This document shows, piece after piece, positions 6,709 through 61,689 of a stretch of DNA of 64,000 nucleotides (positions are counted from its first letter, which is position 1; the number at the start of each line of letters is the position of its first letter). This DNA comes from Calditrichia bacterium (GTDB lineage: Bacteria; Calditrichota; Calditrichia; RBG-13-44-9; J075). The notes under the pieces are model-generated. The model was not told where the DNA came from. It did not search any database and saw nothing but the letters and a program-made list of their open reading frames with translations. The translations under genes were made by a program, and so were the position numbers. The stretch lies in contig JBOEGD010000011.1 of the NCBI GenBank assembly GCA_050633245.1, forward strand, positions 364,985-428,984. The letters run 5' to 3'.

Positions 6709-6889
6709 GAGCAGAACACCGAATACAGACAGAGATTGCTCGGGTGAGCAGGAAACAAGAAGAAAATTGCCTTTTCACCTTTCAACTTTTACTTATACTT
6801 ATAGAACTCAAGTATAACGAAGCGTATATCTCGCGAAGTGTGAAACACAGAATCCGGATCCCTGAACCTGGAACTCTATCGGAAAACGT

Positions 6890-7639
6890 ATGGAACTTTG
6901 GCAAGTCGCTTTACTGTTTGGTGTCGGCTCAATGGCCGGCATGATCAACGTTTTGGCTGGCGGTGGGTCTTCGCTGACGCTCCCAGCCCTGATTTTCTTA
7001 GGGCTGGATAGTGCCTTGGCAAATGGCACGAACCGAGTAGCCATAATAATGCAGAACATCTTCGCTACTGCATCATTCCGCAAGCAGCAGGTCAGCAACT
7101 TCAACCTTAGCGTTAAGCTTGCTCTTTGGACTTTGCCTGGTGCGATTATTGGTGCCATTATGGCCGTTCGAATCAGTGACGAGTGGTTCCAGACAATTCT
7201 GGCCATCGTTCTGATAGGCGTAATAATATCGATGTTCTTCTCACCAGCGGGTAAGCAAAACCTTACTGCCAACCTGGATGGGAAACCGAATTGGTTAATT
7301 TACCCGGCCATGTTTGGTATAGGCTTCTACGGTGGATTCATTCAAGTGGGAGTTGGATTTTTGTTAATGGCCAGTCTGTTCCATTTACTTCGCACCTCAC
7401 TGGTATATGTGAACATGCATAAAGTGCTTATCGTACTGATTTATACTATTCCTGCGCTGGCAATCTTTATTTATAGCGACAAAGTTGATTGGGGATTTGG
7501 TTTAAGTTTAGCTGCCGGAAATGCTTTTGGTGCTTGGTGGGCTGCGAAGTTTGCGGTAAAAATTGGCGACAAGGTGGTTCGATATGTATTAATTCTCGCG
7601 ATCGTTATTATGATTCTGAAGCTGTTGAAGGTTTTCTAA
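6890..7639 (+). CDS. TauE/SafE (TSUP) family membrane transporter
   Basis: About 8 hydrophobic segments; GGGSSL, ANGTN and GFYGGFIQVGVG motifs. Confidence 0.85.
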   Translation: MELWQVALLFGVGSMAGMINVLAGGGSSLTLPALIFLGLDSALANGTNRVAIIMQNIFATASFRKQQVSNFNLSVKLALWTLPGAIIGAIMAVRISDEWFQTILAIVLIGVIISMFFSPAGKQNLTANLDGKPNWLIYPAMFGIGFYGGFIQVGVGFLLMASLFHLLRTSLVYVNMHKVLIVLIYTIPALAIFIYSDKVDWGFGLSLAAGNAFGAWWAAKFAVKIGDKVVRYVLILAIVIMILKLLKVF

Positions 7640-7833
7640 TCGAGAAAAAAATGTCCAAAGAACTCTTCTATTTTAAGAATAACATAGTGGTGGTACTAAA
7701 TTCAGACTGCTCCATTATGAGAATGCTCCATTCTGGCCGCAAAAACAGAATTTTCGCAGGCACGTAAGATCGCTCACACTAATCTTAATTGAAAATCACA
7801 ATTTTGCATGCCAAGAACCAAAGCGAGGGATGC

Positions 7834-40006: not shown

Positions 40007-40948
40007 ATGAAAATATTAATATCAGATAAATCGTCCGCAATTTGTGGCGAAATACTGGAGCAGGGCGGACATTCAGTGGATGTTCGAACTGGTCTGTCAC
40101 CAGAGGAGCTGAAATCTATAATCGGCGATTATCATGGACTTGTGGTGCGAAGTGCTACCACAGTTACTGCCGATCTGTTAGAGGCAGCTAATAACCTGCG
40201 CGTCATTGGGCGTGCTGGCACCGGAGTCGACAATATCGATTTGGAAGCAGCACGTTCAAGAGATATTCTGGTAATGAATACACCGGGAGGAAACTCGAAC
40301 GCAGTGGCCGAGATTGTGCTGGCGCAAATGCTGGGGTTAACCCGTTCGCTTTACCAGGCCTGTAGTTCTTTGAAGAGTGAGCGGTGGGAGAAAAAGTCAT
40401 TCTCCGGCGGTGAAATAATGGGAAAGACAGTGGGAATCCTTGGGTATGGACGAGTTAGCAGATTGCTTGCTAAAAAATGTATGGCTCTGGGGATGGTTGT
40501 TCTATGCAACGATCCAAAAATCAGCAAAGATATTCTGGATAGCGACGGCATTTCAATTCGAGGAAACCTTGATGATGTATTAGGCCAATCTGATTTCCTC
40601 TCGGTGCATCTTAGCAAGCGGGATAATACGCTTAACTTTCTGGCCGATGCCGAATTTGCTAAAATAAAGAAAGGCTGTTTTTTACTCAATTATGCTCGTG
40701 GCGGGATTGTCAATGAAAGTGCATTGATCTCCGCGCTTGACAATAACACTTTGGCAGGTGCAGCTCTTGATGTGTTCTCAACCGAACCGCCTGTAGACTT
40801 CACGTTGATTCAACATGAAAAAGTTATTGCTACGCCCCATATTGGAGCAGCATCAAAAGAGTCTCAGGAAAACGTCGCGGCCATGGTTGCCGAGCAGTTC
40901 GTTGAGTTTTTTGCTGGTAAACAGGCCAGGAATGTGGTAAACAAGTAG
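40007..40948 (+). CDS. D-3-phosphoglycerate dehydrogenase-like D-2-hydroxyacid dehydrogenase (no ACT/ASB domain)
   Basis: VVRSAT.V, GRAGTGVDNID, NTPGGNS.AVAE, NYARG, DVF..EPP, TPHIGA; 313 aa. Confidence 0.85.
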   Translation: MKILISDKSSAICGEILEQGGHSVDVRTGLSPEELKSIIGDYHGLVVRSATTVTADLLEAANNLRVIGRAGTGVDNIDLEAARSRDILVMNTPGGNSNAVAEIVLAQMLGLTRSLYQACSSLKSERWEKKSFSGGEIMGKTVGILGYGRVSRLLAKKCMALGMVVLCNDPKISKDILDSDGISIRGNLDDVLGQSDFLSVHLSKRDNTLNFLADAEFAKIKKGCFLLNYARGGIVNESALISALDNNTLAGAALDVFSTEPPVDFTLIQHEKVIATPHIGAASKESQENVAAMVAEQFVEFFAGKQARNVVNK

Positions 40949-40991
40949 AGAGATTGCTCTCTTATACAGCTATCAATAGAGGAGAAGTAAT

Positions 40992-41876
40992 ATGATAAAT
41001 GACAAACAATATAAGATAAAAGTGGGATTGGCTGAGATGCTCAAGGGTGGCGTTATTATGGATGTTACCAATGTTGAGCAAGCAAAGATTGCTGAAGATG
41101 CGGGCGCCGTTGCAGTGATGGCCCTTGAGCGCATTCCTGCTGATATTCGTGCACATGGTGGCGTTGCTCGCATGAGTGATCCCAAGCTTGTTCGTGAAAT
41201 CCAGGATGCGGTATCCATACCGGTAATGGCAAAGTGCCGAATTGGCCATATAGCTGAAGCACAGATTCTGGAAAGTCTGAAAGTAGACTTTATCGATGAA
41301 AGCGAAGTGCTTACTCCGGCTGATGAAGAGTTTCATATTGATAAGCACCCGTACAAAGTGCCGTTTGTATGCGGTTGCCGCAATCTTGGTGAGGCGTTAC
41401 GACGTATTTCCGAGGGGGCTGCCTTAATTCGTACCAAAGGGGAGCCGGGAACCGGAAATATTGTCGAGGCTGTCCGTCACATGCGCTCCGTGCAAAAGGA
41501 GATTCGCGAAGTAACGGTTATGGGGCAGGAAGAGTTGGTAACGTTCGCCAAGACAATCGGCGCACCGGTCGAGATTGTTCGTTACATCAATGAGCATGGA
41601 AAACTGCCGGTTCCAAACTTTGCAGCTGGCGGTATTGCAACTCCGGCCGACGCGTCACTAATGATGCAGCTTGGTGCTGAAACCGTATTTGTTGGAAGTG
41701 GAATCTATAAGTCTGAGGATCCACCGGCACGCGCACGCGCCATCGTTTCCGCAACGACCCACTACACAGATTTTGATTTGATCGCCAAGGTTTCTGAAGG
41801 ATTAAAAGATGCCATGCCCGGTCTGGAAATATCTTCTATTCCCGACAATGAAATTATGCAGGACCGCGGCTGGTAA
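40992..41876 (+). CDS. pdxS: Pyridoxal 5'-phosphate synthase lyase subunit PdxS
   Basis: [43 protein letters not shown]. Confidence 0.97.
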
Positions 41877-41938
41877 TTAGTTTCGTAGTGGGAGAGTTCC
41901 TCCCACTGCTTTTTATTGATATTGACTTGGTACAATTG

Positions 41939-42520
41939 ATGAAAATTGGTGTTTTAGCTCTTCAGGGCAACTTCTCGCTTCATGCGGACCGGCTTGAAGA
42001 GCTGGATGTTCAGGCTGTTTATATAAAGAAACCTGAGCAGCTGCGCGAATGTGATGGCTTAATCCTTCCCGGCGGCGAGTCTACAACCCTTGTTAAGCTA
42101 CTCGATGAAGTAAGCCTCGGTGAGGCGATTGTTGAGTTCAATAAAGAACGACCCGTTTTTGGCACCTGTGCGGGGGCAATTCTGGTGAGCAGGGAAGTTC
42201 AAAATCACCCGGTTAAACCATTAAACTTACTGAATACAGTTATCTCGCGTAATGCCTATGGACGCCAGGTCGACTCGTTCGATCAGATAGTTGAACTCAA
42301 GCTCGGGGAAAAAACCGTGCAGTCCTCTGCGGTATTTATCCGTGCACCGAAGTTTATTTCCACCGGTCCTGATGTTGCCGTCCTTGGCACGCATAATGGT
42401 GATATTATTATGGTCGAGAATGAGCGCGTGCTCGCTGCAACGTTTCACCCTGAGCTGACAGATGATCCTACCGTGCACCGCTATTTCTTAAAGAAAGTGC
42501 GCTCATTTTCCCAGCACTGA
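41939..42520 (+). CDS. pdxT: PLP synthase glutaminase subunit PdxT
   Basis: MKIGVLALQG, LPGGESTT, GTCAG, RNAYGRQ, FIRAP, FHPEL. Confidence 0.96.
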   Translation: MKIGVLALQGNFSLHADRLEELDVQAVYIKKPEQLRECDGLILPGGESTTLVKLLDEVSLGEAIVEFNKERPVFGTCAGAILVSREVQNHPVKPLNLLNTVISRNAYGRQVDSFDQIVELKLGEKTVQSSAVFIRAPKFISTGPDVAVLGTHNGDIIMVENERVLAATFHPELTDDPTVHRYFLKKVRSFSQH

Positions 42521-42560
42521 TGAAGGTTCCATCCCACTTTGACTAAACCTTTTTATCGTC

Positions 42561-42589
42561 TTGACTCTTCCCGCGCATCCGCCTAAATT
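42561..42589 (+). promoter_or_regulatory. Putative sigma70 promoter of the rib operon
   Basis: TTGACT-17 bp-TAAATT places the start site at about 42596, immediately before the riboswitch. Confidence 0.65.
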
Positions 42590-42596
42590 CATGGCA

Positions 42597-42728
42597 GATC
42601 TTCGGGGCATGGTGATCCTGAAAGGGAAATTCCTGACCGGCGGTAAAAGTCCGCGACTCCACATAAAACCTGTGGATTGAATCGGTGCAATTCCGATACC
42701 GACGGTATAGTCCGGATGGGAGAAGATC
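42597..42728 (+). promoter_or_regulatory. FMN riboswitch (RFN element)
   Basis: P1 GATCTTC/GAAGATC; TCGGGGC..GGTG..AATTCC.GACCGGCGGT; AGTCCGCGA; GGTGCAATTCC..ACCGACGGTATAGTCCGGATGGGAGAAG; upstream of ribD. Confidence 0.96.
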
Positions 42729-42741
42729 ATTTTCATCCAAA

Positions 42742-42786
42742 GCGATAAAGGCATATTACGTGCTTTTTTTCGCCCTATCTTTTTTT
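42742..42786 (+). terminator. Candidate riboswitch-controlled attenuator terminator
   Basis: GCGATAAAGGCA-TATTACG-TGCTTTTTTCGC imperfect stem followed by a T-run, between aptamer and ribD. Confidence 0.5.
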
Positions 42787-42831
42787 GTACCCGCCTCGAC
42801 GATCCGAAAAAAAATCCGTTAAAAAACTTGG

Positions 42832-43989
42832 ATGTTATTTATGGATCAAGATCGCAAATTTATGCAGCGTGCTCTGGAGCTGGCGGTAAAAGGCTCGGGA
42901 CACACTTCACCGAACCCCATGGTCGGCGCCATTATTGTGAAGGATGGCCGGGTAATCGGAGAGGGGTTTCATGAGCGCTATGGTGAGGCTCATGCTGAAA
43001 TTATGGCGATTAACAGCGCAAGCGAACCAATTGTCGGCGCAACAATGTATTGCACTCTCGAGCCTTGTTGTCATTCCATTTCAGATAAAATAACACCGCC
43101 GTGCACGAAGCGATTGTTGGAAGAAAAGTTCTCTCGTATCGTAATTGCCATGCCTGATCCCAATCCACATGTCAGCGGCAAAGGTATTGATATTTTGCGT
43201 GATTCCGGGATAAGGGTCGACGTTGGATTATTACGGCATGAGGCAGAGCAACTCAACGAAGCCTATTGCCATTACATCCAATTCCAGGTTCCGTTCGTTC
43301 ATTTAAAGATGGCAATGTCTCTCGATGGTCGGATCGCCACATCAACGCAACACTCAAAGTGGATTACTGATCTCAGCGCGCGAAGACATGTACATCAGAT
43401 GCGCCATGAACACGCCGCCGTTCTAGTTGGACGCCACACCGTAGAGACAGATGACCCAAAACTGACCGTTAGGGAGGTTACTGGTAAAAACCCTAAACGA
43501 ATTATTCTGGATAGCGGGTTGCGACTTGATGAAAGCAACAATGTGTTTTCCGATGAGCATCGGGATAAGACGATCCTTTTTATCGGCAAACATGCAGATC
43601 CTGGTAAAGTAGCTCGATTGCGCAAACGGGGAGTCCAAATCGAAGTTGCGCCGTTAACAATAGGAAAAATCAGCCTGTCTTTTCTTTTAGAGAGACTGGG
43701 ACAAATGAAATTAAGTTCATTGTTGGTAGAAGGTGGCAGCGAGATTCACACCAGTTTCCTACGCGAGAATTTGTTCGACAAGCTAAGCTGCTTTGTGGCT
43801 CCTCTAATCATCGGAAAAGGGATTGAGGCCGTAGGTGAATTGGGAATTACCGATGTATCTGAGGCATTGCGTTTGTCCAACGTCAACTATCAGCAAATCA
43901 ATGAACAAATCCTGCTAACCGCTTACCGCAATAAAGAAGTTGTCTGGAAGATTCCTTCCAGGGAGGCGACATGTTTACAGGAATTGTAG
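42832..43989 (+). CDS. ribD: Bifunctional riboflavin deaminase/reductase RibD
   Basis: SPNPMVGA, HAE, TLEPCCH...TPPC, SLDGRIAT..SKWIT, DDPKLTVR, LVEGG. Confidence 0.96.
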   Translation: MLFMDQDRKFMQRALELAVKGSGHTSPNPMVGAIIVKDGRVIGEGFHERYGEAHAEIMAINSASEPIVGATMYCTLEPCCHSISDKITPPCTKRLLEEKFSRIVIAMPDPNPHVSGKGIDILRDSGIRVDVGLLRHEAEQLNEAYCHYIQFQVPFVHLKMAMSLDGRIATSTQHSKWITDLSARRHVHQMRHEHAAVLVGRHTVETDDPKLTVREVTGKNPKRIILDSGLRLDESNNVFSDEHRDKTILFIGKHADPGKVARLRKRGVQIEVAPLTIGKISLSFLLERLGQMKLSSLLVEGGSEIHTSFLRENLFDKLSCFVAPLIIGKGIEAVGELGITDVSEALRLSNVNYQQINEQILLTAYRNKEVVWKIPSREATCLQEL

Positions 43990-44591
43990 AAGAAGTTGGA
44001 AAAGTAACCGGTATCACCGCTATCGATGGTGGAATTCGTATTACGATTGAAGCCTCGGCAGTATTGGAAGATACCAAACAGGGTGATTCAATAAATGTAA
44101 ATGGCGCCTGCCAAACGGTTATCTCTCAAACCGACACATCTTTTACCGTTGAAGCAGTGGGGGAGACGCTTACAAAGACGAACCTGGGGCAATTGACTGT
44201 AGAACAAACGGTGAACCTGGAACGGCCATTAACCATGTCATCAAGGCTCGGCGGGCACTTCGTGCAGGGGCATGTCAACTGCACCGGAACCATCACTCAA
44301 TGGTTTGCCAGAGGTGACAATTGGTTTCTGCAGGTTGAGTTACCTGTAGAGCTACGGCCCTATACCATTCCCGAAGGATCAATAACAATAGATGGAATTA
44401 GCCTGACAATTGCCGATCTTCAGCAAAACCTGGTCGGTGTGAATATTATACCGCATACGGCTCAACATACGAATCTTGCAAAACGGAACATCGGCGAAAC
44501 GGTAAACATCGAAGTCGATATGATAGCAAAATACATCGAAAACATGATCAAGTATTCAAATAATCTAACCGAGAGCGGGAGTAAACACTAA
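43971..44591 (+). CDS. ribE: Riboflavin synthase (alpha chain)
   Basis: MFTGIVEE, GDSINVNGACQTV, LGGHFVQGHV, DGISLTI, IIPHT. Confidence 0.96.
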   Translation: MFTGIVEEVGKVTGITAIDGGIRITIEASAVLEDTKQGDSINVNGACQTVISQTDTSFTVEAVGETLTKTNLGQLTVEQTVNLERPLTMSSRLGGHFVQGHVNCTGTITQWFARGDNWFLQVELPVELRPYTIPEGSITIDGISLTIADLQQNLVGVNIIPHTAQHTNLAKRNIGETVNIEVDMIAKYIENMIKYSNNLTESGSKH

Positions 44592-44593
44592 CG

Positions 44594-45850
44594 ATGGTAT
44601 CGAACACCCATACGCCGCAATACGATGAATTCTCGTCTGTGGCTGAGCTGATTGAAGCATATAAAAGAGGAGAAGTTCTTATCCTCGTTGACGATGAAGA
44701 TCGAGAAAATGAAGGCGATTTTATTGTTGCTTCGGAACATGCGACACCGGAAGCGATAAATTTTATGGCAAAAGAGGGCAGAGGGCTAATCTGTGTCAGT
44801 ATCACTGAAAAACGTGCAGCAGCGCTGGATCTTAGCCCAATGTCGCAGGAAAATACGGCCTTGCTGGGAACGCCTTTTACAATGAGCGTCGATGCTATTG
44901 AAAATACGACTACCGGAATTTCTGCATTTGATCGCGCGATAACAATTTCAAAAATGATTGCTGCGGACACCTCGCCAACTGAGTTGGCCCGGCCCGGACA
45001 TGTATTTCCGCTGGTGGCAGATTCGAATGGGGTTTTGGCTCGGCCCGGACATACCGAGGCTGTTGTCGATCTTGCCAAGCTCTCCAACCTGAATCCATCA
45101 GGCGTTTTGTGCGAGATTTTGTCTGAGGATGGTACGATGGCGAGATTGCCCGAACTGCATCGCATTGCCCAAAAGCACGGTCTCAAGATCGGACATATTA
45201 AAGACATAATCAGCTATCGTCAGTCAAATGAAAAGTTGATTGAGCTGGAATCACGTGTTGATCTTCCAACAAAGCACGGGAATTTCGAGCTGCTCTTATT
45301 CCGCAGCCTGGTCGATCCGGACGAAACACATTTGGCCTTACTAAAGGATGGATGGAAGGAAAGTGACAGTGTTCTAACGCGAATTCATTCCGAATGCCTT
45401 ACCGGTGATGTTTTTGGCTCCGGGAGGTGCGACTGTGGTCAGCAGCTGGAAACGGCAATGAAGGCCATCCATGACAATGGCTCCGGCATTATTCTCTACA
45501 TGCACCAGGAAGGCCGTGGAATTGGTCTTGCCGAGAAGCTCAAGGCCTATGCACTACAGGAGCAGGGCATCGATACAGTCGATGCGAATTTAAAATTGGG
45601 TTTTGCCGCTGATGCTCGCGAATACTGGTTTGCTGTACAAATCCTGCGTCATTTGGGAGTTCGATCGGTCGATCTGATCACAAATAATCCCGAAAAAATT
45701 AATCAGCTTGAAAAGCAGCACATTCACGTTGCTTCGCGTGTTCCAAGTCTTGTTGAAGCAGGTATGAACAACGTCGAGTATTTGCGAACGAAACAATCGC
45801 GTATGGGACATCTATTAAATGGGTTGGCAACAAAAACTCGTTCGAGCTAG
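44594..45850 (+). CDS. ribBA: Bifunctional DHBP synthase / GTP cyclohydrolase II
   Basis: [23 protein letters not shown]; [34 protein letters not shown]. Confidence 0.96.
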
Positions 45851-45921
45851 CATGTTCATGCTACCAAATTAGTAGCTGGAATTGTATATCAAATAAAACT
45901 ATACTGCTGTCAGGAGGAAGA

Positions 45922-46386
45922 ATGACTACCTTGCTTCAGGGGAACTTGCAAGCGGAAGGAATAAAGAGCGCAATTATTGTTGGCCGATTTAATCAATTTG
46001 TCTGCAAAAGCCTGCTTGAAGGGGCACTGGATTGTCTGGAAAGACATGGTGCCAACCGAAGTGAACAGCTGGTGACTTGGGTGCCCGGCGCATTCGAAAT
46101 TCCTCTTGCAGCAAAAGTGATTGCGCAAAGACGAAAACCGGATGCGATCATTTGTCTTGGAGCGGTAATTCGTGGTTCTACGCCTCACTTTGACTACGTT
46201 GCCGGAACCTCTGCAAGTGGTGTCGCTAATATTTCTTTGGATTTGTCAATTCCGGTTGCAAATGGTATTATTACAACCGACACCATTGAACAAGCAATTG
46301 AGCGCTCCGGTACAAAAGCAGGGAACAAGGGATGGGATGCAGCGTTAAGTGCAATAGAGATGGTGAATCTAATAAAACAGCTGTAA
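45922..46386 (+). CDS. ribH: 6,7-dimethyl-8-ribityllumazine synthase
   Basis: [41 protein letters not shown]. Confidence 0.97.
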
Positions 46387-51805: not shown

Positions 51806-52249
51806 ATGTCGCTATTCAAAAAAAAGAAAAAAGAAGAGCCCGTATCAAATCGGCCTGTAAAAAGAGAGCATCCAATTGGAGCTTCGCACAAGGTGATTCT
51901 CAATTCAAAACGCCTTATCCCCATCGTGATTCAAAACTTTCTCTCACGCGAGGTATTACAATTAGCCTATATGGATCGCTGGGCATTAGATGTAAGCATG
52001 GCTGAAAATAGACTCCACGTTTTTAGCCGTTCGCGCCAAAAACAAACTCTTTTTGGCGAGGACAAAGGTCTTGAATATGAAATTAAATCCGTTAAATTAG
52101 ACAATACAAAACGCTCGCTCCTCTTCGAAGTTCTGCCCTCTGAGCAGCCCCATCCGGAGAGTCGATTTTCATTTACCGTATTTCCGTCAGTAAACAGCAA
52201 TGGTGAGACCGATGAAGATTTCCAAAATTCTGATAGCGAATCGTGGTGA
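51806..52249 (+). CDS. HisI (PRA-CH) homologue lacking catalytic Cys/Asp ligands
   Basis: LIPIVIQ...EVLQLAYMD..AL, FSRSRQ...GE..G match HisI, but DCDxD is replaced by DNTKR and the CH..SCF motif is absent; AAGGA RBS. Confidence 0.72.
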   Translation: MSLFKKKKKEEPVSNRPVKREHPIGASHKVILNSKRLIPIVIQNFLSREVLQLAYMDRWALDVSMAENRLHVFSRSRQKQTLFGEDKGLEYEIKSVKLDNTKRSLLFEVLPSEQPHPESRFSFTVFPSVNSNGETDEDFQNSDSESW

Positions 52250-53720
52250 GATAGCGCTTAGAATCATGCGCACATGCCGTGAAATGGGAATTGCTACAGT
52301 TGCAGTGTTTTCAGAACCCGATCGCCTTTCCCCGCATGTTCTTTTTGCTGACGAGGCCTATTGTATAGGACCTGCCGCTGCTTCGGAAAGTTATTTAAGA
52401 ATGGATAAGCTAATCGACTGTGCCAAATTATGTGGCGCAGATGCGATTCATCCCGGTTATGGCTTTCTTTCAGAAAACGCAGCGTTCTCAAAGGCCGTAA
52501 GCGACGCGAATCTTATATTTGTCGGCCCACGCCCCCATACGATTTCGGCGATGGGGAGCAAAACAGAATCCCGCAAAATGATGATTGCTGCCGGTGTTCC
52601 TGTTGTTCCCGGTGCAAAGGGAGCCGTCGATTCACTGGATGAGGCAAAAGAGGTTGTCGCCTCAATTGGTGGATATCCGGCACTTATTAAAGCTGCTGCC
52701 GGAGGTGGTGGTAAGGGAATGCGCATTGTACATGCCGAGGAAGAGCTCGAAAGAGCACTTCAGGCTGCACGCGGGGAAGCTGCGAAAGCTTTTGGCGATG
52801 ATACCGTTTACGTCGAGAAATATCTTCAAGCTCCAAAACATATCGAAATACAAGTTATAGCAGACACCCATGGCAATGTCGTTCATCTGTGGGAACGCGA
52901 TTGCTCTATTCAACGTAGACATCAGAAGGTCATTGAAGAATGTCCTTCCCCGACCCTTAGTGATAGCCAACGACAACACCTTGGAAACATAGCAGTGCAA
53001 GCTGCAAAAGCCTGTGATTATATAAATGCCGGTACCGTTGAGTTTATTTATGACGGTAAAGAAAATTTCTATTTCCTTGAAATGAATACGCGCCTGCAGG
53101 TAGAGCATCCGGTAACTGAAATGGTGATGGGTGTAGATCTTGTCAGACTACAGTTGGAGGTTGCCGCAGGAGGCGTGTTACCTTTTAAACAGGATGAGCT
53201 CTCTCCGCGCGGTCATGCTATTGAGTGTCGAATAAACGCTGAAAATGTTTTTCAAAATTTTGTCCCGTCTACCGGAAAGATTTCGCATCTATCCTTGCCA
53301 AACGGTCCGGGAATACGTGTGGATAGCGGTGTAGATCAGCACTCTGAAGTGACCCCCTTCTACGATCCAATGATCGCAAAAATGATCGTTTATGCAGGCA
53401 ATCGCGATGATGCAATTGCCAGAATGCTTCGTGCTCTCCAGGAGTTCAGCATTTCCGGCATCGAGACGACCGTGCCATTTTGCCTGCGCACCCTTGCACA
53501 TCCAGAGTTCGTCGGTGGAAATTTTACTACAAAATTTATTGAGACCTATTGGGAAGATATGCAGCAGCAGGCACCTTCCAGTAACGATGAAATTGCTATT
53601 GCCACTGTGTTGACCCAGAAAAAGTCCGATTCCTCTACACAGTTTACATCTAGTAAAACCAGCGGTGCACAAGCATCCCGGTGGCAAATGCGAGCAACTC
53701 CAGGTTGGAGAAACCAATGA
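52212..53720 (+). CDS. accC: Biotin carboxylase subunit of an acyl-CoA carboxylase
   Basis: KILIANRGEIA, IHPGYGFLSEN, GGGGKGMR, ERDCSIQRRHQK, EMNTRLQVEHPVTE, YDPMIAK. Confidence 0.93.
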   Translation: MKISKILIANRGEIALRIMRTCREMGIATVAVFSEPDRLSPHVLFADEAYCIGPAAASESYLRMDKLIDCAKLCGADAIHPGYGFLSENAAFSKAVSDANLIFVGPRPHTISAMGSKTESRKMMIAAGVPVVPGAKGAVDSLDEAKEVVASIGGYPALIKAAAGGGGKGMRIVHAEEELERALQAARGEAAKAFGDDTVYVEKYLQAPKHIEIQVIADTHGNVVHLWERDCSIQRRHQKVIEECPSPTLSDSQRQHLGNIAVQAAKACDYINAGTVEFIYDGKENFYFLEMNTRLQVEHPVTEMVMGVDLVRLQLEVAAGGVLPFKQDELSPRGHAIECRINAENVFQNFVPSTGKISHLSLPNGPGIRVDSGVDQHSEVTPFYDPMIAKMIVYAGNRDDAIARMLRALQEFSISGIETTVPFCLRTLAHPEFVGGNFTTKFIETYWEDMQQQAPSSNDEIAIATVLTQKKSDSSTQFTSSKTSGAQASRWQMRATPGWRNQ

Positions 53721-54232
53721 GATACTACCTGCGCCGAGAAGAAGAATTTCTTCCAATAGAGCTTAGCGAAAATGGTAACGGCTATACCGTTATTATCGAC
53801 AATCAGAAGATGGATGTCGATGTTCGCCACATATCAGGTAATCGATACTCTGCGCTGGTTAACGGAAAATCCCATGTTTTATATTCCGAGCTGCATACCC
53901 AACAGAAAGCGCTGATTACGAATCATATTCGAACAGAATTAAGGCTTTTAAACGAACGCCAGAAGCTTGAAGCAGAACTATTTGGCGATTCAAACGAAAA
54001 CGTCGGCAGGGGAGAGGTAAGAGCTCCGATGCCTGGCATGATTCTTCGCGTCGAGGTTCTTGAAGGTGATAAAGTTGAGGCGGGACAACCGATATTGGTA
54101 ATGGAAGCAATGAAGATGGAGAACGAGATAAAAGCGGAAACTATGGGAGTCGTTACCGCGATTAAAATTGAAGCCGGTCAGGCAGTAGAGAAAGACGATT
54201 TGCTACTGTCCATCGGCGAAGATGAAGGCTAG
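53717..54232 (+). CDS. Biotin carboxyl carrier protein with N-terminal BT-like domain
   Basis: APMPG, EAMKMEN biotinylation motif; ATGA overlap with accC. Confidence 0.92.
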   Translation: MRYYLRREEEFLPIELSENGNGYTVIIDNQKMDVDVRHISGNRYSALVNGKSHVLYSELHTQQKALITNHIRTELRLLNERQKLEAELFGDSNENVGRGEVRAPMPGMILRVEVLEGDKVEAGQPILVMEAMKMENEIKAETMGVVTAIKIEAGQAVEKDDLLLSIGEDEG

Positions 54233-54252: not shown

Positions 54253-55422
54253 ATGAGGGGAAATCAATTGTTGTGTTGTAGCGGCTGGTTCGTAAGAGGC
54301 AGCCTATTGCTCGTGCTGAGTGCGATATTATTTCTATCTTGTGGAAGTGGCGTTAACGCCCAACGAGAAAACGCAATAAAATCTGCACAGAAGGCGGTGC
54401 TTGCCAACCCCGGCAATACCAACGCTGTTCGCGAGTTGGGCATATTGTATTATGAGGCTGGTGAATTTCAAAAATCTCGGGCCCTGCTACAGAAGGTATT
54501 GACAAACACATCGGACGATCTCCGCTGTCGTTCGTATCTGGGATTAACCTACGAAGCACTGAATATGACTGACAAAGCACTGGATTTGTATACCGCTCCC
54601 GTTCTACAGAGTTCACCCTATGGGAATTGGTTGTTGGGAAGACAGAAAATCCTGAAAAGACAGCAGGCTCACGGAATCCTACGGTCTCGCATAGAAGAAG
54701 TAAAGATTGAAGAAACATCACTTAGCAACCAGAGTATCGTTGTGGCGCCGGTAACGTATCATGGCAAAAAGAGCAAATATGAGAGTCTTTCAACTGGAAT
54801 AACTGCATTGTTCACACATGCACTTGGCAAATTGAATGCAGTAACTGTCGCCGATCATTTTGAGGTTGAACTCACTTCTTCCATTATCCAGGCACAATCC
54901 GATTCGGATTTAAGAGAAAAACCGCTCTCTATTATGGGAGAGGTCTTTTCAAGCGCCACGCTGGTAAAATGTAATTACAATATCGTAGACGATCGCCAGA
55001 TCGTTCTGGATGTTGCCTATTGGAATCTCAATAAGGAAGGATTACCAACAGCAAAAACCTACCTGGCTCCGCTGGATGGTGGGCTTGCTGTAATCAGGCA
55101 GGATGTGGTTGCCGATCTTCGCACTTTTATTGCTCATTCAGAAGGTGAGCCGTTCTTTCAGGCTCGTATAGACAAGGATGCCTTTACTTACTTTTGCAGT
55201 GGAATTATAAACAATCTCGACAGCAATTTTGAAAAGAGTCAAAACGCTTTCGACAAAGCTCTTGAGAACAATCCACAATTTGAACTCTGTGCATTTTTTC
55301 GCGACCAGAATCAGCTTATGCTCGATGCGAGTAAAACACCACGAGAATTGGGACTTCTGCCTGAAGCAGCCTCAGCTTCCCTGAATGGTATTCAAGACCA
55401 TACGTTTAATCTGCGGCAGTGA
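54253..55422 (+). CDS. TPR lipoprotein with CsgG/TolB_N-like domain
   Basis: FLS-C lipobox; TPR helices (LGILYYEAGEF, LGLTYEA); IVVAP....YESLSTGITALFTHALGKL..VTVAD. Confidence 0.65.
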   Translation: MRGNQLLCCSGWFVRGSLLLVLSAILFLSCGSGVNAQRENAIKSAQKAVLANPGNTNAVRELGILYYEAGEFQKSRALLQKVLTNTSDDLRCRSYLGLTYEALNMTDKALDLYTAPVLQSSPYGNWLLGRQKILKRQQAHGILRSRIEEVKIEETSLSNQSIVVAPVTYHGKKSKYESLSTGITALFTHALGKLNAVTVADHFEVELTSSIIQAQSDSDLREKPLSIMGEVFSSATLVKCNYNIVDDRQIVLDVAYWNLNKEGLPTAKTYLAPLDGGLAVIRQDVVADLRTFIAHSEGEPFFQARIDKDAFTYFCSGIINNLDSNFEKSQNAFDKALENNPQFELCAFFRDQNQLMLDASKTPRELGLLPEAASASLNGIQDHTFNLRQ

Positions 55423-58400
55423 TTTCCAAAGCCCTTTTTGCCACATTCCGGACAACAGGAAATATCTGTTGGTGCTAGGTTTTCCCGACGAATTATTATT
55501 GTTGCCGGCATTCCCATCTCCGAACCCGTCCAGTCGGGCTCTTCATTACCACTGTGCTCAATGCCATTACCGTCTTGCCAAAACAACGCATAATCATTGT
55601 GCATCTTATTCTTTAAAAAGGCGCTCAGCAGTTTCGAATAACTCCACCAATGTTTAATAGATTCTAAGCCTCCTATTGGTAAAAAGCGTATCAGCTTAAC
55701 CGGGAATTCATGCTGCTCCAAATCCTGAGATTCTTCCATCACTCCAAAAATTCTATTCATGCTGAACATGGTATTTTGACAGGAAATCCCCTTGAAATAA
55801 TGAATATTAATTGCCCAATCCAGATTTTCACTGTTGTCCGATTTCTGAAAGTCCTTACGGAGTAGTAAGCTATTCAAGATTATCGCCAGTTGTCCCGGCC
55901 CATTGCCTCCCTGTGAACAGCAGAAAATGCGCGCTAATGGCTGTTTGTCAACAGACAGTGTATTGGAAGAGCTTACCGGCACACTAGAGCAACATTGATA
56001 GTTACGCGCATGTCGAAGCGGCGTGGTTCTATCTGTATCAACAGGAGCTTCGCCATTCTTTAAGACATCGGAGTTGTTCGCGATAATATAGTCCTGATAA
56101 GAGGCGATACGGCATAGATTCATTCCGGGACAGGCGAGCTTTCCTTTACCGCCATCCTCTGCTTCATTTATCACTTTGTCGAATAACATTCCCTTGAACT
56201 CTGCAACGGTATTGGCCTTTCCCGCTTCGCGAACGGTCAGGCGATCTATCACTTCATTCACACCAATGCCTACAGGATCGTTTATTGCTTCCAAATGACC
56301 TTGGATGTGTCTACCCAGCGGATTGTCTGACAGGGGTGTTTCTAAAGGCGCAGGATCTACGTAATTCTTGCCATCGTTAACATATAATCGAGAAACCGCT
56401 GCCTGACCATTCTCGGACGTCTTTGATATTATTGCCTTGTCAACAGTAGAAAGAGTCGCATAGCCGGTTAGATAGAAATTACTGCTGTCCAGATCATCGA
56501 TGATATTTCGCAGATATTGAAAAGAGGGCAGCATAAAGGCTGGCTCTCCGGCAACATTTTCCGGGATTTTTGTTTTTCCAAAACGCAAATTAGCCAGCTT
56601 GGCCAGGTAATCCGCCAATGCACCGGGTCTGTTTGGCAAACAACTATTAAGTTCAAGAAATCGACCGTATTCCGGAGCAGCATCCTCATCATATTTCGAA
56701 AGCAGGCTTCGTCTCGCACTGCCGACAATTTCCTCCGTATCGGCCATAGAGTCTACAATAGAGCCGCCTTTTAACTCTCCAGTAAAATGTGAATATCTGG
56801 CATGTGTTGGATAGAACGGCGACATAGCAAGCGGTTCGCTATATAAACCCGATAATGAATCATAGTAGCGTGAATAATCGCCCAAACGATGTTTTTCATG
56901 CTTGTCGCCTTCAGTCGTCGCCAGCAAAAGAAGAGGCAGTGGTAAATTCTCCGAACTCTTCAACCTTTCCAGGCTTCGTATGCAGCGGGAAAGAATCATC
57001 GGGGCTGCGTTGTCTTCATGATTGATTATTAAGATATCAGGTTTTTGATCTAATATGCATGCTTCAATCGCAGCATTGTCACCATCATTTAGAATGCGCG
57101 TCTTTAGTTGCGGATAACTATTTTCCCGGGTTTTATCTATGGAAGCAGAGAAGCGGCCACCGGTTACGAATCCTTCCGCCCATACATGTGTAAAGGCCCC
57201 ATTGGCCTTTTCTCTTAAAGTTGGATATACAGAAACACCTGTATCCAGCAGAATGAAAGCGAAGTTGCGCTCGATTGTCTGAGACTTTGTCAGGTGATCT
57301 CCGGGGAAGTAGGCATAAATGGTTTCAAGCATGTAGTGGTTACTCTTGTTATTGCCAACAACCAATACCTTGGGCCACTTGTCTAAACGTTTAACAGCAC
57401 GCACTTTTTGCATGGCAGCCCAGAGGCGATAGCCAAGCGTATTACCCTGGCTATGCTTCGGATATACCAATACAATTTGACGATGTCTGGCCCGATAGGT
57501 TAGATACGAAATTTGGTCGCTGCGGCTAACGCAGATTATCGCACGAACATTTGCTCTGCTGGCACGATCAAAAATTTCCTGTACGCTTGCTTCATCCGGC
57601 ACCGTGCAAATGGCCAGCTTTGCTCGCTCAAAATTTACGCGGCTGCTTATTACCGGTTTGCTGGCTTCACCAAGGATGAACGGTACTAAAATTCGCTTCT
57701 CAGGGTGAATAAGTGCTCCAGTAGGATCCTTACTGATATACATTTCTTCAAGTGTGCTTACAACGCCAAACTGGCCGAGTAATTCGGAGTCGGCAGAATA
57801 GATCATATCATTGGGATTACGTTCTACAACAACGAGCTGGCTACATAATTGTTCAAGTCGGACGTCTGGTGTAACCACTTCCATCAGATGCTTCTCGGCG
57901 TCTGTGTTGAGTAATTGTCTTGCTTCTCGGCGCAGAATACGACGACCAAGACTCCCCAAACCGACAACAACCGTATGCCCTTGAATTAGTAGAAGCAAAT
58001 TTTCTACTCGCCTGTGGAAGTATTCCCCAAACGTCGAATCTGGTAACACTGCTGCCTTTGTGAGTGGACTGAACCATGCAAAGAAAACCCCCAGCGCCAG
58101 TACAACCTGATCGGCCTGAACAATAACGTTGAGCAACTCGTATTGTTTTGCCGCCACAAAAAATATGGGTGTCATAAAGAACACAGATGAAAGAATTAAC
58201 CCGCCGGGTAGCAGCACCGGGTTGCGCAAAAGCATGGCAATAGCAAAGTGCCATAAATAACGATGCGATCGAAAGATCACGCCGTGAACATCTCTTTCAT
58301 GAAAGGTGACCGAGATTAAAACGCTGCTCATCAAACGATGGCCCAGGCAAGCCCAAAGGAAAAACAGCAACGCAGAGAACAGGGAACAGCAAAACCAGGT

Positions 58401-59102
58401 AAGCATCTCCATTTGGAGCTGAAGAGGTTTATCTGCCTGACTAAACATCCGCGAGGGTTGCATGGAAAACATATCCTGACCGGCGGAGGCTAACACCCAG
58501 AGCTCTATAACCAGAACGCCGAGTAATACCATAAATAGTGAGAGTGAATCGAACCAAAGCCAACGCTCAGAATATTTGCGCGCCTGGGGGGAGGTCCCGG
58601 CTCGTATATCACGTGATGCGGTCCGCTTAAGATTAAATCCGGCAAGTACCAAATAGATAATCGAAACCGAGATTAACAGCCCCCAATAGAATTGCGATAA
58701 ATCCATAACAGGCGAATGTTCACTCAAGAACGTTGTTGCGAGATGATGCGGGAAAAACAAAAAGACCATTCCAATAAGAAGGATATTCCGAACATACATA
58801 ATGCCATTTTCAATGCGTTCAGATTCGTAAATAATCGCCAAAAAGTTGGGAACCCATAGAAGGATCTGAAAAGACAATAAGAGTAAGGCGTGTAGCAATG
58901 CAACAGAAAGCTGATGCTGCGGAAGTCCGTAGGTGAACAGAAAACGACTGAAGCTATAGCTCAACAGCGTTGTGAGAAGCACCGGCAATATGAACATAAA
59001 AAGAACAAACCGGCGCTTATCTCCACGATTTCTAAGGGGAAATTCAATACCCTTATTAAGAATCTTGCGTTTGTCTGGGACCAGATTTACTGTTTGAGGC
59101 AT
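55392..59102 (-). CDS. Large uncharacterised membrane protein: multi-TM N-terminus, RCK/TrkA-N-like and ACT-like motifs, Cys-rich C-terminus
   Basis: AAGGAG RBS before ATG 59102 (1236 aa); about 8 hydrophobic segments; GHTVVVGLGSLGRRI; KVLVVGNNK; LPNRPGALA; GNGPGQLA; terminal CCPECG. Confidence 0.75.
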   Translation of the reverse strand: MPQTVNLVPDKRKILNKGIEFPLRNRGDKRRFVLFMFILPVLLTTLLSYSFSRFLFTYGLPQHQLSVALLHALLLLSFQILLWVPNFLAIIYESERIENGIMYVRNILLIGMVFLFFPHHLATTFLSEHSPVMDLSQFYWGLLISVSIIYLVLAGFNLKRTASRDIRAGTSPQARKYSERWLWFDSLSLFMVLLGVLVIELWVLASAGQDMFSMQPSRMFSQADKPLQLQMEMLTWFCCSLFSALLFFLWACLGHRLMSSVLISVTFHERDVHGVIFRSHRYLWHFAIAMLLRNPVLLPGGLILSSVFFMTPIFFVAAKQYELLNVIVQADQVVLALGVFFAWFSPLTKAAVLPDSTFGEYFHRRVENLLLLIQGHTVVVGLGSLGRRILRREARQLLNTDAEKHLMEVVTPDVRLEQLCSQLVVVERNPNDMIYSADSELLGQFGVVSTLEEMYISKDPTGALIHPEKRILVPFILGEASKPVISSRVNFERAKLAICTVPDEASVQEIFDRASRANVRAIICVSRSDQISYLTYRARHRQIVLVYPKHSQGNTLGYRLWAAMQKVRAVKRLDKWPKVLVVGNNKSNHYMLETIYAYFPGDHLTKSQTIERNFAFILLDTGVSVYPTLREKANGAFTHVWAEGFVTGGRFSASIDKTRENSYPQLKTRILNDGDNAAIEACILDQKPDILIINHEDNAAPMILSRCIRSLERLKSSENLPLPLLLLATTEGDKHEKHRLGDYSRYYDSLSGLYSEPLAMSPFYPTHARYSHFTGELKGGSIVDSMADTEEIVGSARRSLLSKYDEDAAPEYGRFLELNSCLPNRPGALADYLAKLANLRFGKTKIPENVAGEPAFMLPSFQYLRNIIDDLDSSNFYLTGYATLSTVDKAIISKTSENGQAAVSRLYVNDGKNYVDPAPLETPLSDNPLGRHIQGHLEAINDPVGIGVNEVIDRLTVREAGKANTVAEFKGMLFDKVINEAEDGGKGKLACPGMNLCRIASYQDYIIANNSDVLKNGEAPVDTDRTTPLRHARNYQCCSSVPVSSSNTLSVDKQPLARIFCCSQGGNGPGQLAIILNSLLLRKDFQKSDNSENLDWAINIHYFKGISCQNTMFSMNRIFGVMEESQDLEQHEFPVKLIRFLPIGGLESIKHWWSYSKLLSAFLKNKMHNDYALFWQDGNGIEHSGNEEPDWTGSEMGMPATIIIRRENLAPTDISCCPECGKKGFGNHCRRLNVWS

Positions 59103-59128
59103 ACATCTCCTTTGGGAGGTCAAACAGA

Positions 59129-60106
59129 TCAGGTAGCCAGGAGGTCCTCCAAAAAAACAGCCGCCCTGGTTTCCGACCAATATTCATTTTCCGAATTCAG
59201 CTGAACAAAGCCGACGTGTCCACCATGCTCCGGTATCTCAAGAGACACATGTGGATTTGCTTCAGCTTCAACAATGGGATAGCAAGCTTGGGGGAGAAAG
59301 GGATCGTTTTGGGCATTTACGATCAGTGTTGGCACAGCAATATCGGGGATAAATTGTTTACTGCTGCATTTAGAATAATAGTCCTCTGCATCTTTGTAGC
59401 CATGCAGCGGTGCAGTATATCGATCATCGAAATCGGCTAAAGATTTAATGCTGGCGTAGTGGTAATCATTTATTTGTCCGGGCATCAGCTTCATCTTAAT
59501 ACGAACTTTTTCACGAAGTTTTAGCAAGAATCGTTTACGATAGATGTAGTTTGTGGGAAGCTGAAGCTGTTTACAGGATGCACTAAGGTCGCAGGGAACT
59601 GAAAAAACTGCACCGCCACGAACTTGAGCAGGAAGAGTTGTTCCTTGTTCACCAAGGTACTTAAGTGTGATGTTGCCACCCATACTAAAACCAGCCAGGA
59701 CAATAGAGCGATAAGAGCAGGTTTTTACAATGTGTTGAATAACGGTATGCAGATCGTCGCTGGAACCACTGTTGTAATAGCGCAACAGGCGATTGGGTTC
59801 GCCACTGCATCCTCGGCAATTCAGACCGGCGGCATCAATGCCACGTTTGTTAAAAGCCTTGGCAATTCCAAGGACATACTCACGTTCGGCGTTTCCTTCA
59901 AGGCCATGCGAAACCAGCAGCAATGAGTCACTGCCGACTCGCGACCAATCCAAGTCGACGAAATCGCCATCAGGTGTATCAATACGCTCACGTCGATAAG
60001 CGATACCATCTACCCGACGTCTAAGATTCGGGTAGATCGTTTGCATGTGTCCATTCCACAGAAAACGTGGTGGCCGATAGGTTTCAAAGACAGCAGTTAC
60101 ACTCAT
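59129..60106 (-). CDS. YheT-family alpha/beta hydrolase
   Basis: NGHMQTI, PDGDFVDLDW, HGLEG, RGCSGEPN, GFSMGGN, NAQNDPF, GGHVGF. Confidence 0.92.
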   Translation of the reverse strand: MSVTAVFETYRPPRFLWNGHMQTIYPNLRRRVDGIAYRRERIDTPDGDFVDLDWSRVGSDSLLLVSHGLEGNAEREYVLGIAKAFNKRGIDAAGLNCRGCSGEPNRLLRYYNSGSSDDLHTVIQHIVKTCSYRSIVLAGFSMGGNITLKYLGEQGTTLPAQVRGGAVFSVPCDLSASCKQLQLPTNYIYRKRFLLKLREKVRIKMKLMPGQINDYHYASIKSLADFDDRYTAPLHGYKDAEDYYSKCSSKQFIPDIAVPTLIVNAQNDPFLPQACYPIVEAEANPHVSLEIPEHGGHVGFVQLNSENEYWSETRAAVFLEDLLAT

Positions 60107-60120
60107 TATCGCACTGTTTT

Positions 60121-61689
60121 TTAGACTTCAAGCAGCATTCTTGCCGGATCTTCCAGTAGCTCCTTCACGCGCACTAAAAAGCTGACGGATTCTTTACCGT
60201 CAACTATTCTGTGATCATAGGAGAGGGCCAGATACATCATGGGCCTGGCAACGATTTCACCATTCACAACAACCGGTCGTTGTTCAATCTTGTGCATTCC
60301 GAGAATGGCGGATTGAGGAGCATTAATGATCGGTGTAGACATTAGCGAACCAAATATACCACCATTCGTAATGGTAAACGTTCCACCGGTCATTTCCTCG
60401 ATACTTAGCTTGCCATCACGCGCTTTTATTGCCAAATCCATAATGGTCTTTTCGATGTCGGCAAGAGAAAGTTTGTCTGCATTTCTTACAACCGGCACTA
60501 CAAGACCTCGCGGACTGGATACAGCAATCGAAACATCGCAGTAATTGTGATAAATAATATGGTTATCTTCGATGCGTCCATTAACGCTTGGCCACTCGCT
60601 GGCAGCGATACAAACGGCCCGCGTAAATAAAGACATGAAGCCGAGTTTTATACCATACTTCTCTTTAAACATCTCTTTATACTTTGCGCGGGTCTCCATA
60701 ATTCCGGTCATATCTATTTCATTGAACGTGGTAAGCATAGCAGTTTGGTTCTTCACTTCGACCAGTCGTCGCGCAATCGTTTTACGCAATGAAGACATCC
60801 GCTCTCGTTTTTCAGATCGCTCACCGACAATTTCAGCAGCAGGCGCTACCGGCGGAGTAGGGGAGGAGCTCTGTGCAGCTGGGGGAGCAGCCGGAGCACT
60901 GGATTTGGAGTCACGTGCCTTGATGGCGTCTTCCTTTAGAATTTTACCACCCGGGCCAGAGCCGGCAACCTTATCAGGATCTATCCCGGCTTCGGCAAGA
61001 ATGTTTGCCGCAACCGGTGTGACCTTTGCATGTCCTGCATCAGCCGCAGTGCCATTTGATGCAGGTGCATTCACGACAGGTTGTGTTGCCAGTGGAGCAG
61101 ATGTCGAGACACTGCCACCCGGAGTGATTTCCGCTATAGTATCGCCGATTTCCACCACATCACCCTCGGCGGCTTGCTGTTTAAGAACGCCGGCTACTTC
61201 AGCAGGGAGTTCAAAAGACGCTTTATCTGATTCAATCTCGCAGATCAGATCACCTTCGGCCACAGCTTCACCGTCTTTTTTCAGCCATTGAGCGATCGTT
61301 ACTTCAGTAATAGATTCCCCAACGGTTGGCACCGTGATAGCCAGCGGAGCTCCAACGGATTGAGTTGTTTTTGCTTTTGATTGCGGAGGCGGATCAGCTG
61401 ACTTGGCTACAGCTGGAGCAGCAATTTTCTCTTCCTTTTTAGGTGCAGGCTTGCTGCCGCCTTCTTCAATGCTACCAACGCTGGCACCTATGGCCAGAAC
61501 GTCGCCTTCTGCAGCATTTACGCGTAGAATACCGGTTGCTTCAGCAGGTAATTCAAAGGAAGCTTTGTCAGATTCAATTTCACAAATCAGATCACCTTCG
61601 TTTACGAAGTCACCGTCGTTCTTCAACCACTGGGCAATTGTTACTTCAGTTATCGATTCACCGACAGTCGGGATCTTGATATCGTACAT
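60121..61689 (-). CDS. sucB: 2-oxoglutarate dehydrogenase E2 (dihydrolipoamide succinyltransferase) with two lipoyl domains
   Basis: Two PTVGESITE...IESDKAS lipoyl domains, E3-binding [35 protein letters not shown]. Confidence 0.96.

Follow-up and report, generated by a model that had tools for sequence, protein, structure and literature searches.

Which task a large membrane protein might perform that is encoded shortly downstream of the sucA and sucB genes of 2-oxoglutarate dehydrogenase is the question raised by a stretch of 64,000 nucleotides from a Calditrichia bacterium (contig JBOEGD010000011.1, positions 364,985 to 428,984; the window in the following). According to the list of open reading frames (ORFs) and the translation, the protein (P0002) comprises 1236 amino acids and is encoded on the minus strand at window positions 55392-59102. 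An earlier note, made from the sequence alone, had proposed for it N-terminal hydrophobic helices followed by RCK-like, ACT-like and cysteine (Cys)-rich segments, had not recognised the overall architecture and had considered a link to 2-oxoglutarate dehydrogenase. The analysis presented here identifies a conserved membrane protein of an undescribed and unnamed family, in which an RCK-type module is coupled to two domains, the transmembrane (TM) domain and the C-terminal domain, that match no solved fold in the searches performed.

A conserved membrane protein of an undescribed family

The open frame spans 55392 to 59180 on the minus strand, its longest version beginning at a TTG at 59180. The ATG at 59102, which gives the 1236 amino acids, is the likely start codon as judged from the sequence, because a Shine-Dalgarno-like AAAGGAGA is located 3 nt upstream and the nearest homologue begins with the same MPQTVNL. 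A word-seeded search retrieved 40 further proteins of 783-1451 amino acids, all at E <= 2e-121 and 30-64% identical to P0002, and an exhaustive HMMER search with residues 37-1236 recovered 108 cluster representatives at E <= 1e-3, 41 of them at E <= 1e-30; the reading frame is therefore not a chance ORF. In its own 6.35-Mb genome the gene is present as a single copy.

The few named members among the 40 homologues derive from Calditrichaceae/Calditrichaeota and the candidate division KSB1. Of the other genomes within the phylum, 13 of the 15 from the same taxonomic family and none of the 70 from other families contain a member (E <= 1e-10); further matches occur in KSB1-type metagenome-assembled genomes (MAGs), with one distant member from a Brocadiales MAG. 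Conservation was assessed with a core alignment of 51 sequences, from which those below 1100 amino acids had been dropped, and a distant set of 54 sequences, from which those below 850 amino acids had been dropped; AlphaFold models cover residues 1-375 and 736-1236.

That the architecture had not been recognised is borne out by the databases, as Pfam, NCBIfam, PDB, Foldseek and VIA searches assigned neither a named family nor a solved fold to the whole protein. No significant family was found for it in Pfam or NCBIfam, the latter giving nothing under E 0.1, and PADLOC assigned 0 families to four family members. In the ESM Atlas the whole protein scored 0.80-0.81, which is the chance range, and its C-terminal part had no usable match. 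Equally, full-text literature searches returned no paper with a title or abstract on such a protein family.

As a separate observation, one homologue (L008:7941-8180, equal to G068:C58) has a TGA seven codons ahead of the conserved QYPLR motif, and its annotated product P0016 (1175 amino acids) starts much later, without the first helices. The TGA may be an error of sequencing, or the gene may use another start or be broken at its 5' end.

Domain architecture

Residues 376-572 are treated here as a divergent RCK/KTN domain on the grounds of a recurrent TrkA_N assignment, a preserved signature and reciprocal profile matches, by which homology of this first Rossmann region to TrkA_N/RCK/KTN domains is supported at the sequence level. 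Its start is covered by the string GHTVVVGLGSLGRRI (residues 375-389), and it carries a dinucleotide-binding signature, composed of H376, the motif G381-x-G383-x-x-G386 and the acidic E427 that closes beta2, as well as G478 and two family-specific insertions at about residues 393-421 and 432-469. Throughout the 54 distant members H376 is retained in 50, G381 in 54, G383 in 53, G386 in 47 and G478 in 51 sequences, with aspartate or glutamate at position 427 in 51; in the core set the latter position is occupied by glutamate 39 times and by aspartate 12 times. TrkA_N (PF02254) is the only recurrent Pfam family among 75 scanned relatives and is found at E <= 0.01 in 27 of them (18 of 38 distant and 9 of 37 core sequences), with five relatives (P0042, P0044, P0075, P0077 and P0107) exceeding the curated cut-off. 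When the family profile of this domain was run against the own genome (32,312 ORFs in six frames; Z set to 6000), the only non-self matches were a Kch-like (E 4.3e-5) and a KefC-like protein (E 0.003), which both rank in the top four for PF02254 there. Furthermore, a profile of the mid-region matched a single PDB sequence, from the KTN domain of YbaL, an antiporter (E 0.11). With the recurrent TrkA_N in relatives, the kept GxGxxG and the Kch- and KefC-like profile matches, the RCK/TrkA-N-type Rossmann domain that had been proposed to follow the membrane part has held up.

The second Rossmann-like start noticed previously, KVLVVGNNKSNHYML at residues 578-592, equally turned out to belong to a conserved segment: G583 is kept in 51 of 54 distant members and P723 in 48 of 50, and D742, Y747, P765, D784 and D788 are mostly kept. 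Residues 573-800, which gave no Pfam or PDB sequence match, also include the conserved helical linker elements LGDxSRYYD, YP, D784 and D788; the succession of strands and helices in the alignment leads us to infer that this region is Rossmann-like. Comparison of the two Rossmann segments with each other did not reveal a significant internal repeat (E 0.22).

For the C-terminal part, the AlphaFold model of residues 736-1236 (501 amino acids; 59 aligned sequences) reached a predicted local distance difference test score (pLDDT) of 83.3 and a predicted template modelling score (pTM) of 0.87, and displays two alpha+beta units that each open with a strand, a Pro-Gly loop and a helix. As is the case for the two Rossmann starts, the strings quoted earlier for these unit openings, ELNSCLPNRPGALADYLAKL (residues 817-836) and IFCCSQGGNGPGQLAIILNSL (residues 1059-1079), and the Cys motifs are all present in the translation, the latter as CPGMNLC at 991-997, CC at 1037/1038 and 1061/1062, C1108 and CCPEC...C at 1216-1229. 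Conservation of the many C-terminal cysteines had been set beforehand as a test, and nine of them are invariant or nearly so in the core set, with C821, C991, C997, C1037 and C1062 in 51 of 51 sequences each, C1108 in 50 of 51, C1217 and C1220 in all 47 sequences aligned there and C1229 in 48 of 48. Four are kept superfamily-wide (C821 in 43 of 46 distant sequences, C991 in 33 of 34, C997 in 34 of 34 and C1108 in 32 of 35); less constant are C1062 (22 of 35) and C1037 (12 of 33). The presence of four universally kept cysteines in a cytoplasmic domain suggests a putative metal site, either Zn or Fe-S.

No fold match was detected for the C-terminal model by Foldseek (best E 7e-3 with a TM-score of 0.07), by the VIA-wide search (best Z 4.7) or by a second VIA search (best Z 3.4). 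The interpretation of two of its segments as ACT-like is a possibility with features for and against it. Both modelled units do share with ACT domains the start of strand, Pro-Gly loop and helix and the order beta-alpha-beta-beta-alpha-beta. However, ACT-type chains (PAH, TPH2, AHAS/IlvN and plant ACT-like) reached no more than Z 2.3-3.2, under the noise level, with a 501-residue query being too large for a sensitive single-domain search; about 57-110 residues are aligned and these are scattered over more than 300 residues, so that the match is not to one contiguous unit. In contrast to ACT domains, each unit possesses a conserved Cys in its first strand as well as extra strands, and a Pfam ACT match was absent from the protein and the 75 scanned relatives. 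Equally, the similarity between units 1 and 2 (E 0.011 across just 14 columns of the Pro-Gly-helix part) is not significant.

The membrane domain was predicted with about eight hydrophobic helices, and both the hydropathy scan (eight hydrophobic segments) and the AlphaFold model of residues 1-375 (55 aligned sequences; pLDDT 89.9, pTM 0.89; eight long helices) agree with this number. A linker helix of 20 residues (354-374) connects the last TM helix with the Rossmann domain in the model. Lysine plus arginine counts are 6, 5 and 5 on the N-terminal tail, loop 4-5 and loop 6-7, and 0, 0, 2 and 1 on the outer loops; since this distribution follows the positive-inside rule, both termini of the membrane domain are placed in the cytoplasm. 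Charged residues within the TM helices of the core family include E98 (37 of 51), R105 (40 of 51), E200 (45 of 51) and D331, which is invariant (51 of 51), as is W343. TM1-4 and TM5-8 do not form a significant internal repeat (E 0.16). The reported lack of a TVGYG potassium filter extends to the family, with [TS][VIL]G[YFL]G or G[YF]GD ahead of GxGxxG in 0 of 51 core sequences and [TS]xG[YF]G in no collected family protein; likewise, no Ion_trans-type Pfam pore domain was found in scans of the protein and 75 relatives. A match of the TM profile in the own genome (C34:22043-23827, E 3.5e-5) was rejected as compositional, because it consists of one TM helix and the juxtamembrane stretch of a HAMP histidine kinase.

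All 54 distant members have hydrophobic helices before the Rossmann start and none after it as a domain. W343 is kept in 43 of 52 distant sequences, and the last TM helix and the linker are the only parts of the membrane domain conserved superfamily-wide, so that the constant unit consists of the last TM helix, linker, RCK domain, second lobe and Cys domain, set on variable membrane parts. Such an arrangement fits a gating or transducing module, and fits equally a sensor whose membrane part is a mere anchor.

Comparison with established RCK/KTN systems, the channels MthK, Kch, GsuK and BK/Slo, KefC and YbaL of the CPA2 transporters and the TrkA/KtrA rings, underlines both relatedness and distance. 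Shared are the TrkA_N-type Rossmann with H-x4-GxGxxG and an acidic residue in beta2, its placement directly after the last TM helix via a linker helix and, with tandem-RCK proteins, a second Rossmann-like lobe in the same chain. In contrast, the 1236-residue protein is devoid of a potassium pore (TVGYG-type motif, Ion_trans_2) and of a CPA2 or TrkH membrane domain; its eight-helix domain has no fold match, its Rossmann domain harbours two insertions, no TrkA_C lobe was detected, an extra Cys-rich domain of 430 residues is appended and its own Pfam score stays under the cut-off.

Genomic neighbourhood

The features of the locus are compiled in Table 1.

Table 1. Features of the 1236-residue protein and of its surroundings (positions in the window; residues refer to P0002)
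Feature	Position	Strand	Basis
Coding sequence of P0002 (1236 amino acids), stop codon included	55392..59102	-	ORF list and translation; 40 homologues; single copy in own genome
Shine-Dalgarno-like AAAGGAGA, 3 nt ahead of ATG 59102	59106..59113	-	Read from sequence
Basic N-terminal tail with conserved (E/Q)YPLR motif, eight TM helices and linker helix (residues 1-375)	57978..59102	-	AlphaFold, hydropathy, positive-inside counts
TM helices, residues about 28-55, 61-88, 95-129, 136-160, 182-207, 227-266, 297-317, 330-352			AlphaFold model
Divergent TrkA_N/RCK (KTN) Rossmann domain (residues 376-572)	57387..57977	-	Pfam in relatives, motif conservation, reciprocal profile matches
Second Rossmann-like segment (WPKVLVVGNNK...), without GxGxxG, and conserved helical linker (residues 573-800)	56703..57386	-	Conservation in alignments
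Cys-rich C-terminal domain, two alpha+beta units (residues 801-1236)	55395..56702	-	AlphaFold model; Cys counts
Alpha/beta hydrolase (YheT-like) gene, 26 bp upstream	59129..60106	-	Pfam Abhydrolase_1 E 8.9e-15; NCBIfam PRK10985 225 bits, under 267-bit cut-off
sucB (2-oxoacid dehydrogenase E2)	60121..61689	-	Pfam 2-oxoacid_dh E 7.6e-86 and lipoyl domains
sucA, farther upstream	61729 to past 63999	-	Translation read by eye
Convergent TPR protein gene, 3' end overlapping the 3' end of the P0002 gene by 31 nt	54253..55422	+	ORF list, Pfam TPR families

Upstream of the gene, the gaps of 26 bp to the yheT-like gene (stop at 59129, ATG at 59102) and of 14 bp between the latter and sucB (60121 to the start at 60106), the common strand and the separate ribosome-binding site AAAGGAGA were confirmed as previously described. 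A consensus scan listed no terminator-like site within the 26-bp gap. These features favour a functional tie to the 2-oxoglutarate dehydrogenase operon, by which metabolite or redox state would be coupled to membrane transport, as do the order sucA-sucB-yheT-like gene in a second locus (L040) and, in a Calditrichaceae MAG (L001:4802-7374, minus strand), a pair of ATP-grasp/citrate-binding and CoA-ligase genes that is located divergently upstream of the homologue and resembles ATP-citrate lyase or succinyl-CoA ligase. However, that pair, which is related to the tricarboxylic acid cycle, is absent from the closely related L003, and tblastn with the window neighbours found none of them in 20 genome loci of homologues. 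With 17 metagenome loci added, sucA-sucB-yheT precedes a homologue in one of the 32 loci with at least 1 kb upstream, namely L040, and the remaining 31 encode neither sucA nor sucB nor the hydrolase. L040 codes for the nearest relative (64% identity); since every one of the ten tested neighbours is collinear with its counterpart in the window, this locus is not independent evidence for the linkage. Neighbourhoods of homologues differ even within the same family. With linkage in one of 32 loci the association with sucAB is lineage-local, and the functional tie proposed in the earlier note, which was not sustained, is regarded as highly improbable.

Over 37 loci, the recurrent neighbours are GAF-SpoIIE PP2C phosphatases (6 loci), PAS histidine kinases (5), B12-radical-SAM proteins (3) and rRNA-methyltransferase-like proteins (3). 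The SpoIIE-type genes are located at L016:4009-5193, L017:6749-7237, L018:3932-5059, L009:1059-2351, L008:11760-14231 and L004:13638-14993, with GAF-SpoIIE in L009 and L004. In a Calditrichaeota MAG (L007), the homologue, which starts at 7965, is preceded on the same strand at a distance of 49 bp by trkH, a gene for a TrkH-family potassium transporter (6465-7916, plus strand; Pfam TrkH, E 1e-61); no TrkA-like gene was present among the flanking ORFs scanned in this locus. Several of the loci with recurrent neighbours are kin, and neither these neighbours nor trkH make a strong case.

Some additional observations concern the window itself. A terminator-like hairpin of 9 pairs, 5 of them G-C, with a subsequent T run is found inside the 3' end of sucB (60180-60205, minus strand), about 60-85 nt before the stop codon, and could be due to chance or be an internal attenuator. 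On the plus strand, in the segment 51806-54232, an ORF of 147 amino acids that matches PRA-CH (phosphoribosyl-AMP cyclohydrolase) in part (E 3e-8) runs into the beginning of a gene at 52200-53720, which itself shares 40 nt with an ORF at 53681-54232; as read from their translations, the last two are biotin carboxylase-like and lipoyl/biotinyl carrier-like, respectively. Farther away (40007-46386, plus strand), translations read as a D-3-phosphoglycerate dehydrogenase-like protein, pdxS and pdxT, and subsequently ribD, riboflavin synthase, ribBA and lumazine synthase, which are ordinary housekeeping genes.

Possible function and its meaning

Cation channels and transporters such as MthK, Kch, BK, KefC, YbaL, Trk and Ktr are regulated by TrkA_N/RCK/KTN domains joined to their membrane part. 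Because an RCK/KTN domain at the end of the last TM helix is a hallmark of such regulated proteins, the most likely of the functions considered for the 1236-residue protein is that of an ion channel or transporter under RCK control, which would have a novel membrane fold and receive a metal or redox signal as additional input; this reading is held tentatively and at slightly less than an even chance. In keeping with it are the conserved charged residues within the TM helices of the core family and the trkH gene next to one homologue (L007). The cytoplasmic RCK/KTN module would then probably bind a nucleotide such as NAD(H) or ATP/ADP, as do other RCK/KTN proteins, and the Cys domain would probably hold a Zn or Fe-S centre with C821, C991, C997 and C1108 as the most widely conserved ligands. 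A conformational change might be passed on via the linker helix to the membrane domain to open or close an ion path in a channel or transporter without a classical potassium selectivity filter. The location after sucAB-yheT would be a local, lineage-specific arrangement outside this mechanism.

A number of findings weigh against channel or transporter activity. For the family as a whole, this activity would be deduced from the RCK domain, and the Rossmann folds of residues 376-800 are predicted from sequence. The protein's own TrkA_N score is 14.1 bits (E 0.059, residues 468-530), below the cut-off of 23.8 bits, and it is not among the seven matches of a PF02254 search of its genome. Alignment of the mid-region by hhalign with three canonical RCK proteins of the own genome gave probabilities of 6%, 0.6% and 2%; these short alignments fall at the GxGxxG and the GDA block and are not significant. 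Equally, TM1-6 are unaligned in 36-45 of the 54 distant members and the number of TM helices among these ranges from about 1-3 up to 13, which is unusual for a conserved pore. The TM-domain model had no Foldseek match at E <= 1e-3 (best E 0.66), reached a best Z of 5.6, under the noise of helical bundles, when compared by VIA-align with 48,161 chains, and matched no solved fold in the second VIA search (best Z 4.8). Finally, the commonest recurrent neighbours are signalling genes and not transport genes.

The variability of the membrane domain in sequence and helix number, with the cytoplasmic module as the conserved core, would equally be expected of a membrane-anchored sensor of energy or redox state that signals to partners such as PP2C phosphatases or histidine kinases and uses its helices as an anchor or sensing surface. 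The neighbourhoods speak for such a sensor as well, as in 6 of 37 loci a GAF-SpoIIE phosphatase gene is no more than 4 kb away (in the L016-L018 clade it immediately precedes the homologue), and 5 of 37 have a PAS(-GAF) histidine kinase nearby. These counts, however, overstate independence, since L016-L018 are kin and L004 and L041 seemingly stem from the same organism; such signalling genes may just be common in these genomes, and at least 26 of the 37 loci have neither a phosphatase nor a kinase neighbour. Moreover, no known output or interaction domain was found in Pfam/NCBIfam scans of the protein and its relatives, and channels and transporters are known in which an RCK domain follows the last TM helix. 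A sensor is considered unlikely, although it is a genuine contender. Clearly more improbable is a membrane-bound oxidoreductase that would accept NAD(P)H at the Rossmann domain and pass electrons via Fe-S of the Cys domain to a membrane acceptor such as quinone. This proposal would make use of the intact dinucleotide-binding signature and the nine invariant cysteines and would suit the origin of the named members from MAGs of Calditrichaceae, KSB1 and Brocadiales, which are largely anaerobic lineages; one homologue is also labelled 'succinate dehydrogenase cytochrome b subunit' by its source, and cytochrome b561 appears at Z 5.5 against the TM-domain model. That match has, however, a root-mean-square deviation (rmsd) of 7.1 and is in the noise range, and neither flavin nor Fe-S nor haem families were detected in Pfam/NCBIfam scans. 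With Cx5C, isolated Cys and a terminal CxxCx8C, the spacing was judged by reading not to be the classical ferredoxin or radical-SAM pattern, candidate haem-ligand histidines are not invariant (H119 in 32, H268 in 36 and H285 in 37 of 51), and the best sequence relatives of the Rossmann domain are KTN/RCK domains, not dehydrogenases.

The membrane domain might alternatively be a TMEM175-type filter-less potassium channel fused to RCK, as TMEM175 shares the lack of a classical filter and provides the only three PDB sequence matches of the full-length family profile (5vre at E 0.098, 6hdc/6hd8 at E 3.9), which align to TM1-TM4. These E-values are, however, not significant, and structural support is absent: human TMEM175 (6wc9) gave a Foldseek E of 2.4 with a TM-score of 0.17 and an rmsd of 22.6, and TMEM175 is missing from the 50 matches listed in the VIA-wide search (lowest Z 4.0) and the 50 listed in the second search (lowest Z 3.3). 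FSD, the string that marks TMEM175, occurs in the first 120 residues of just 4 of 51 core sequences, and 8 helices are present here versus 6 per TMEM175 repeat, which leaves this fusion a barely credible option.

Returning to the RCK-regulated channel or transporter, a bolder version appears doubtful, though possible: a new ion-conducting class with an unseen eight-helix fold, in which the last helix would be pulled by the RCK domain under joint control of nucleotide and a redox-active metal centre (Fe-S or Zn-thiolate) located in a new double alpha+beta domain, with RCK-Cys4 as a portable gating unit on very different membrane domains across several phyla. The protein lends itself well to structure determination, as it consists of one chain whose domains are well predicted and offers evident conserved positions for mutagenesis. 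The operon-based reading is corrected, in that the sucAB neighbourhood is local and unsuited for annotating the family. In prokaryotic cation channels and transporters the standard cytoplasmic gate is an RCK/KTN domain, and here such a domain is joined to TM and Cys domains that are unlike anything solved and both confidently modelled. If ions are conducted or transported, the known RCK-gated proteins would be joined by a family with a new membrane fold and a new type of input, a metal or redox centre; should the new class in fact exist, it would represent a channel or transporter gated directly by the energy and redox state of the cell.

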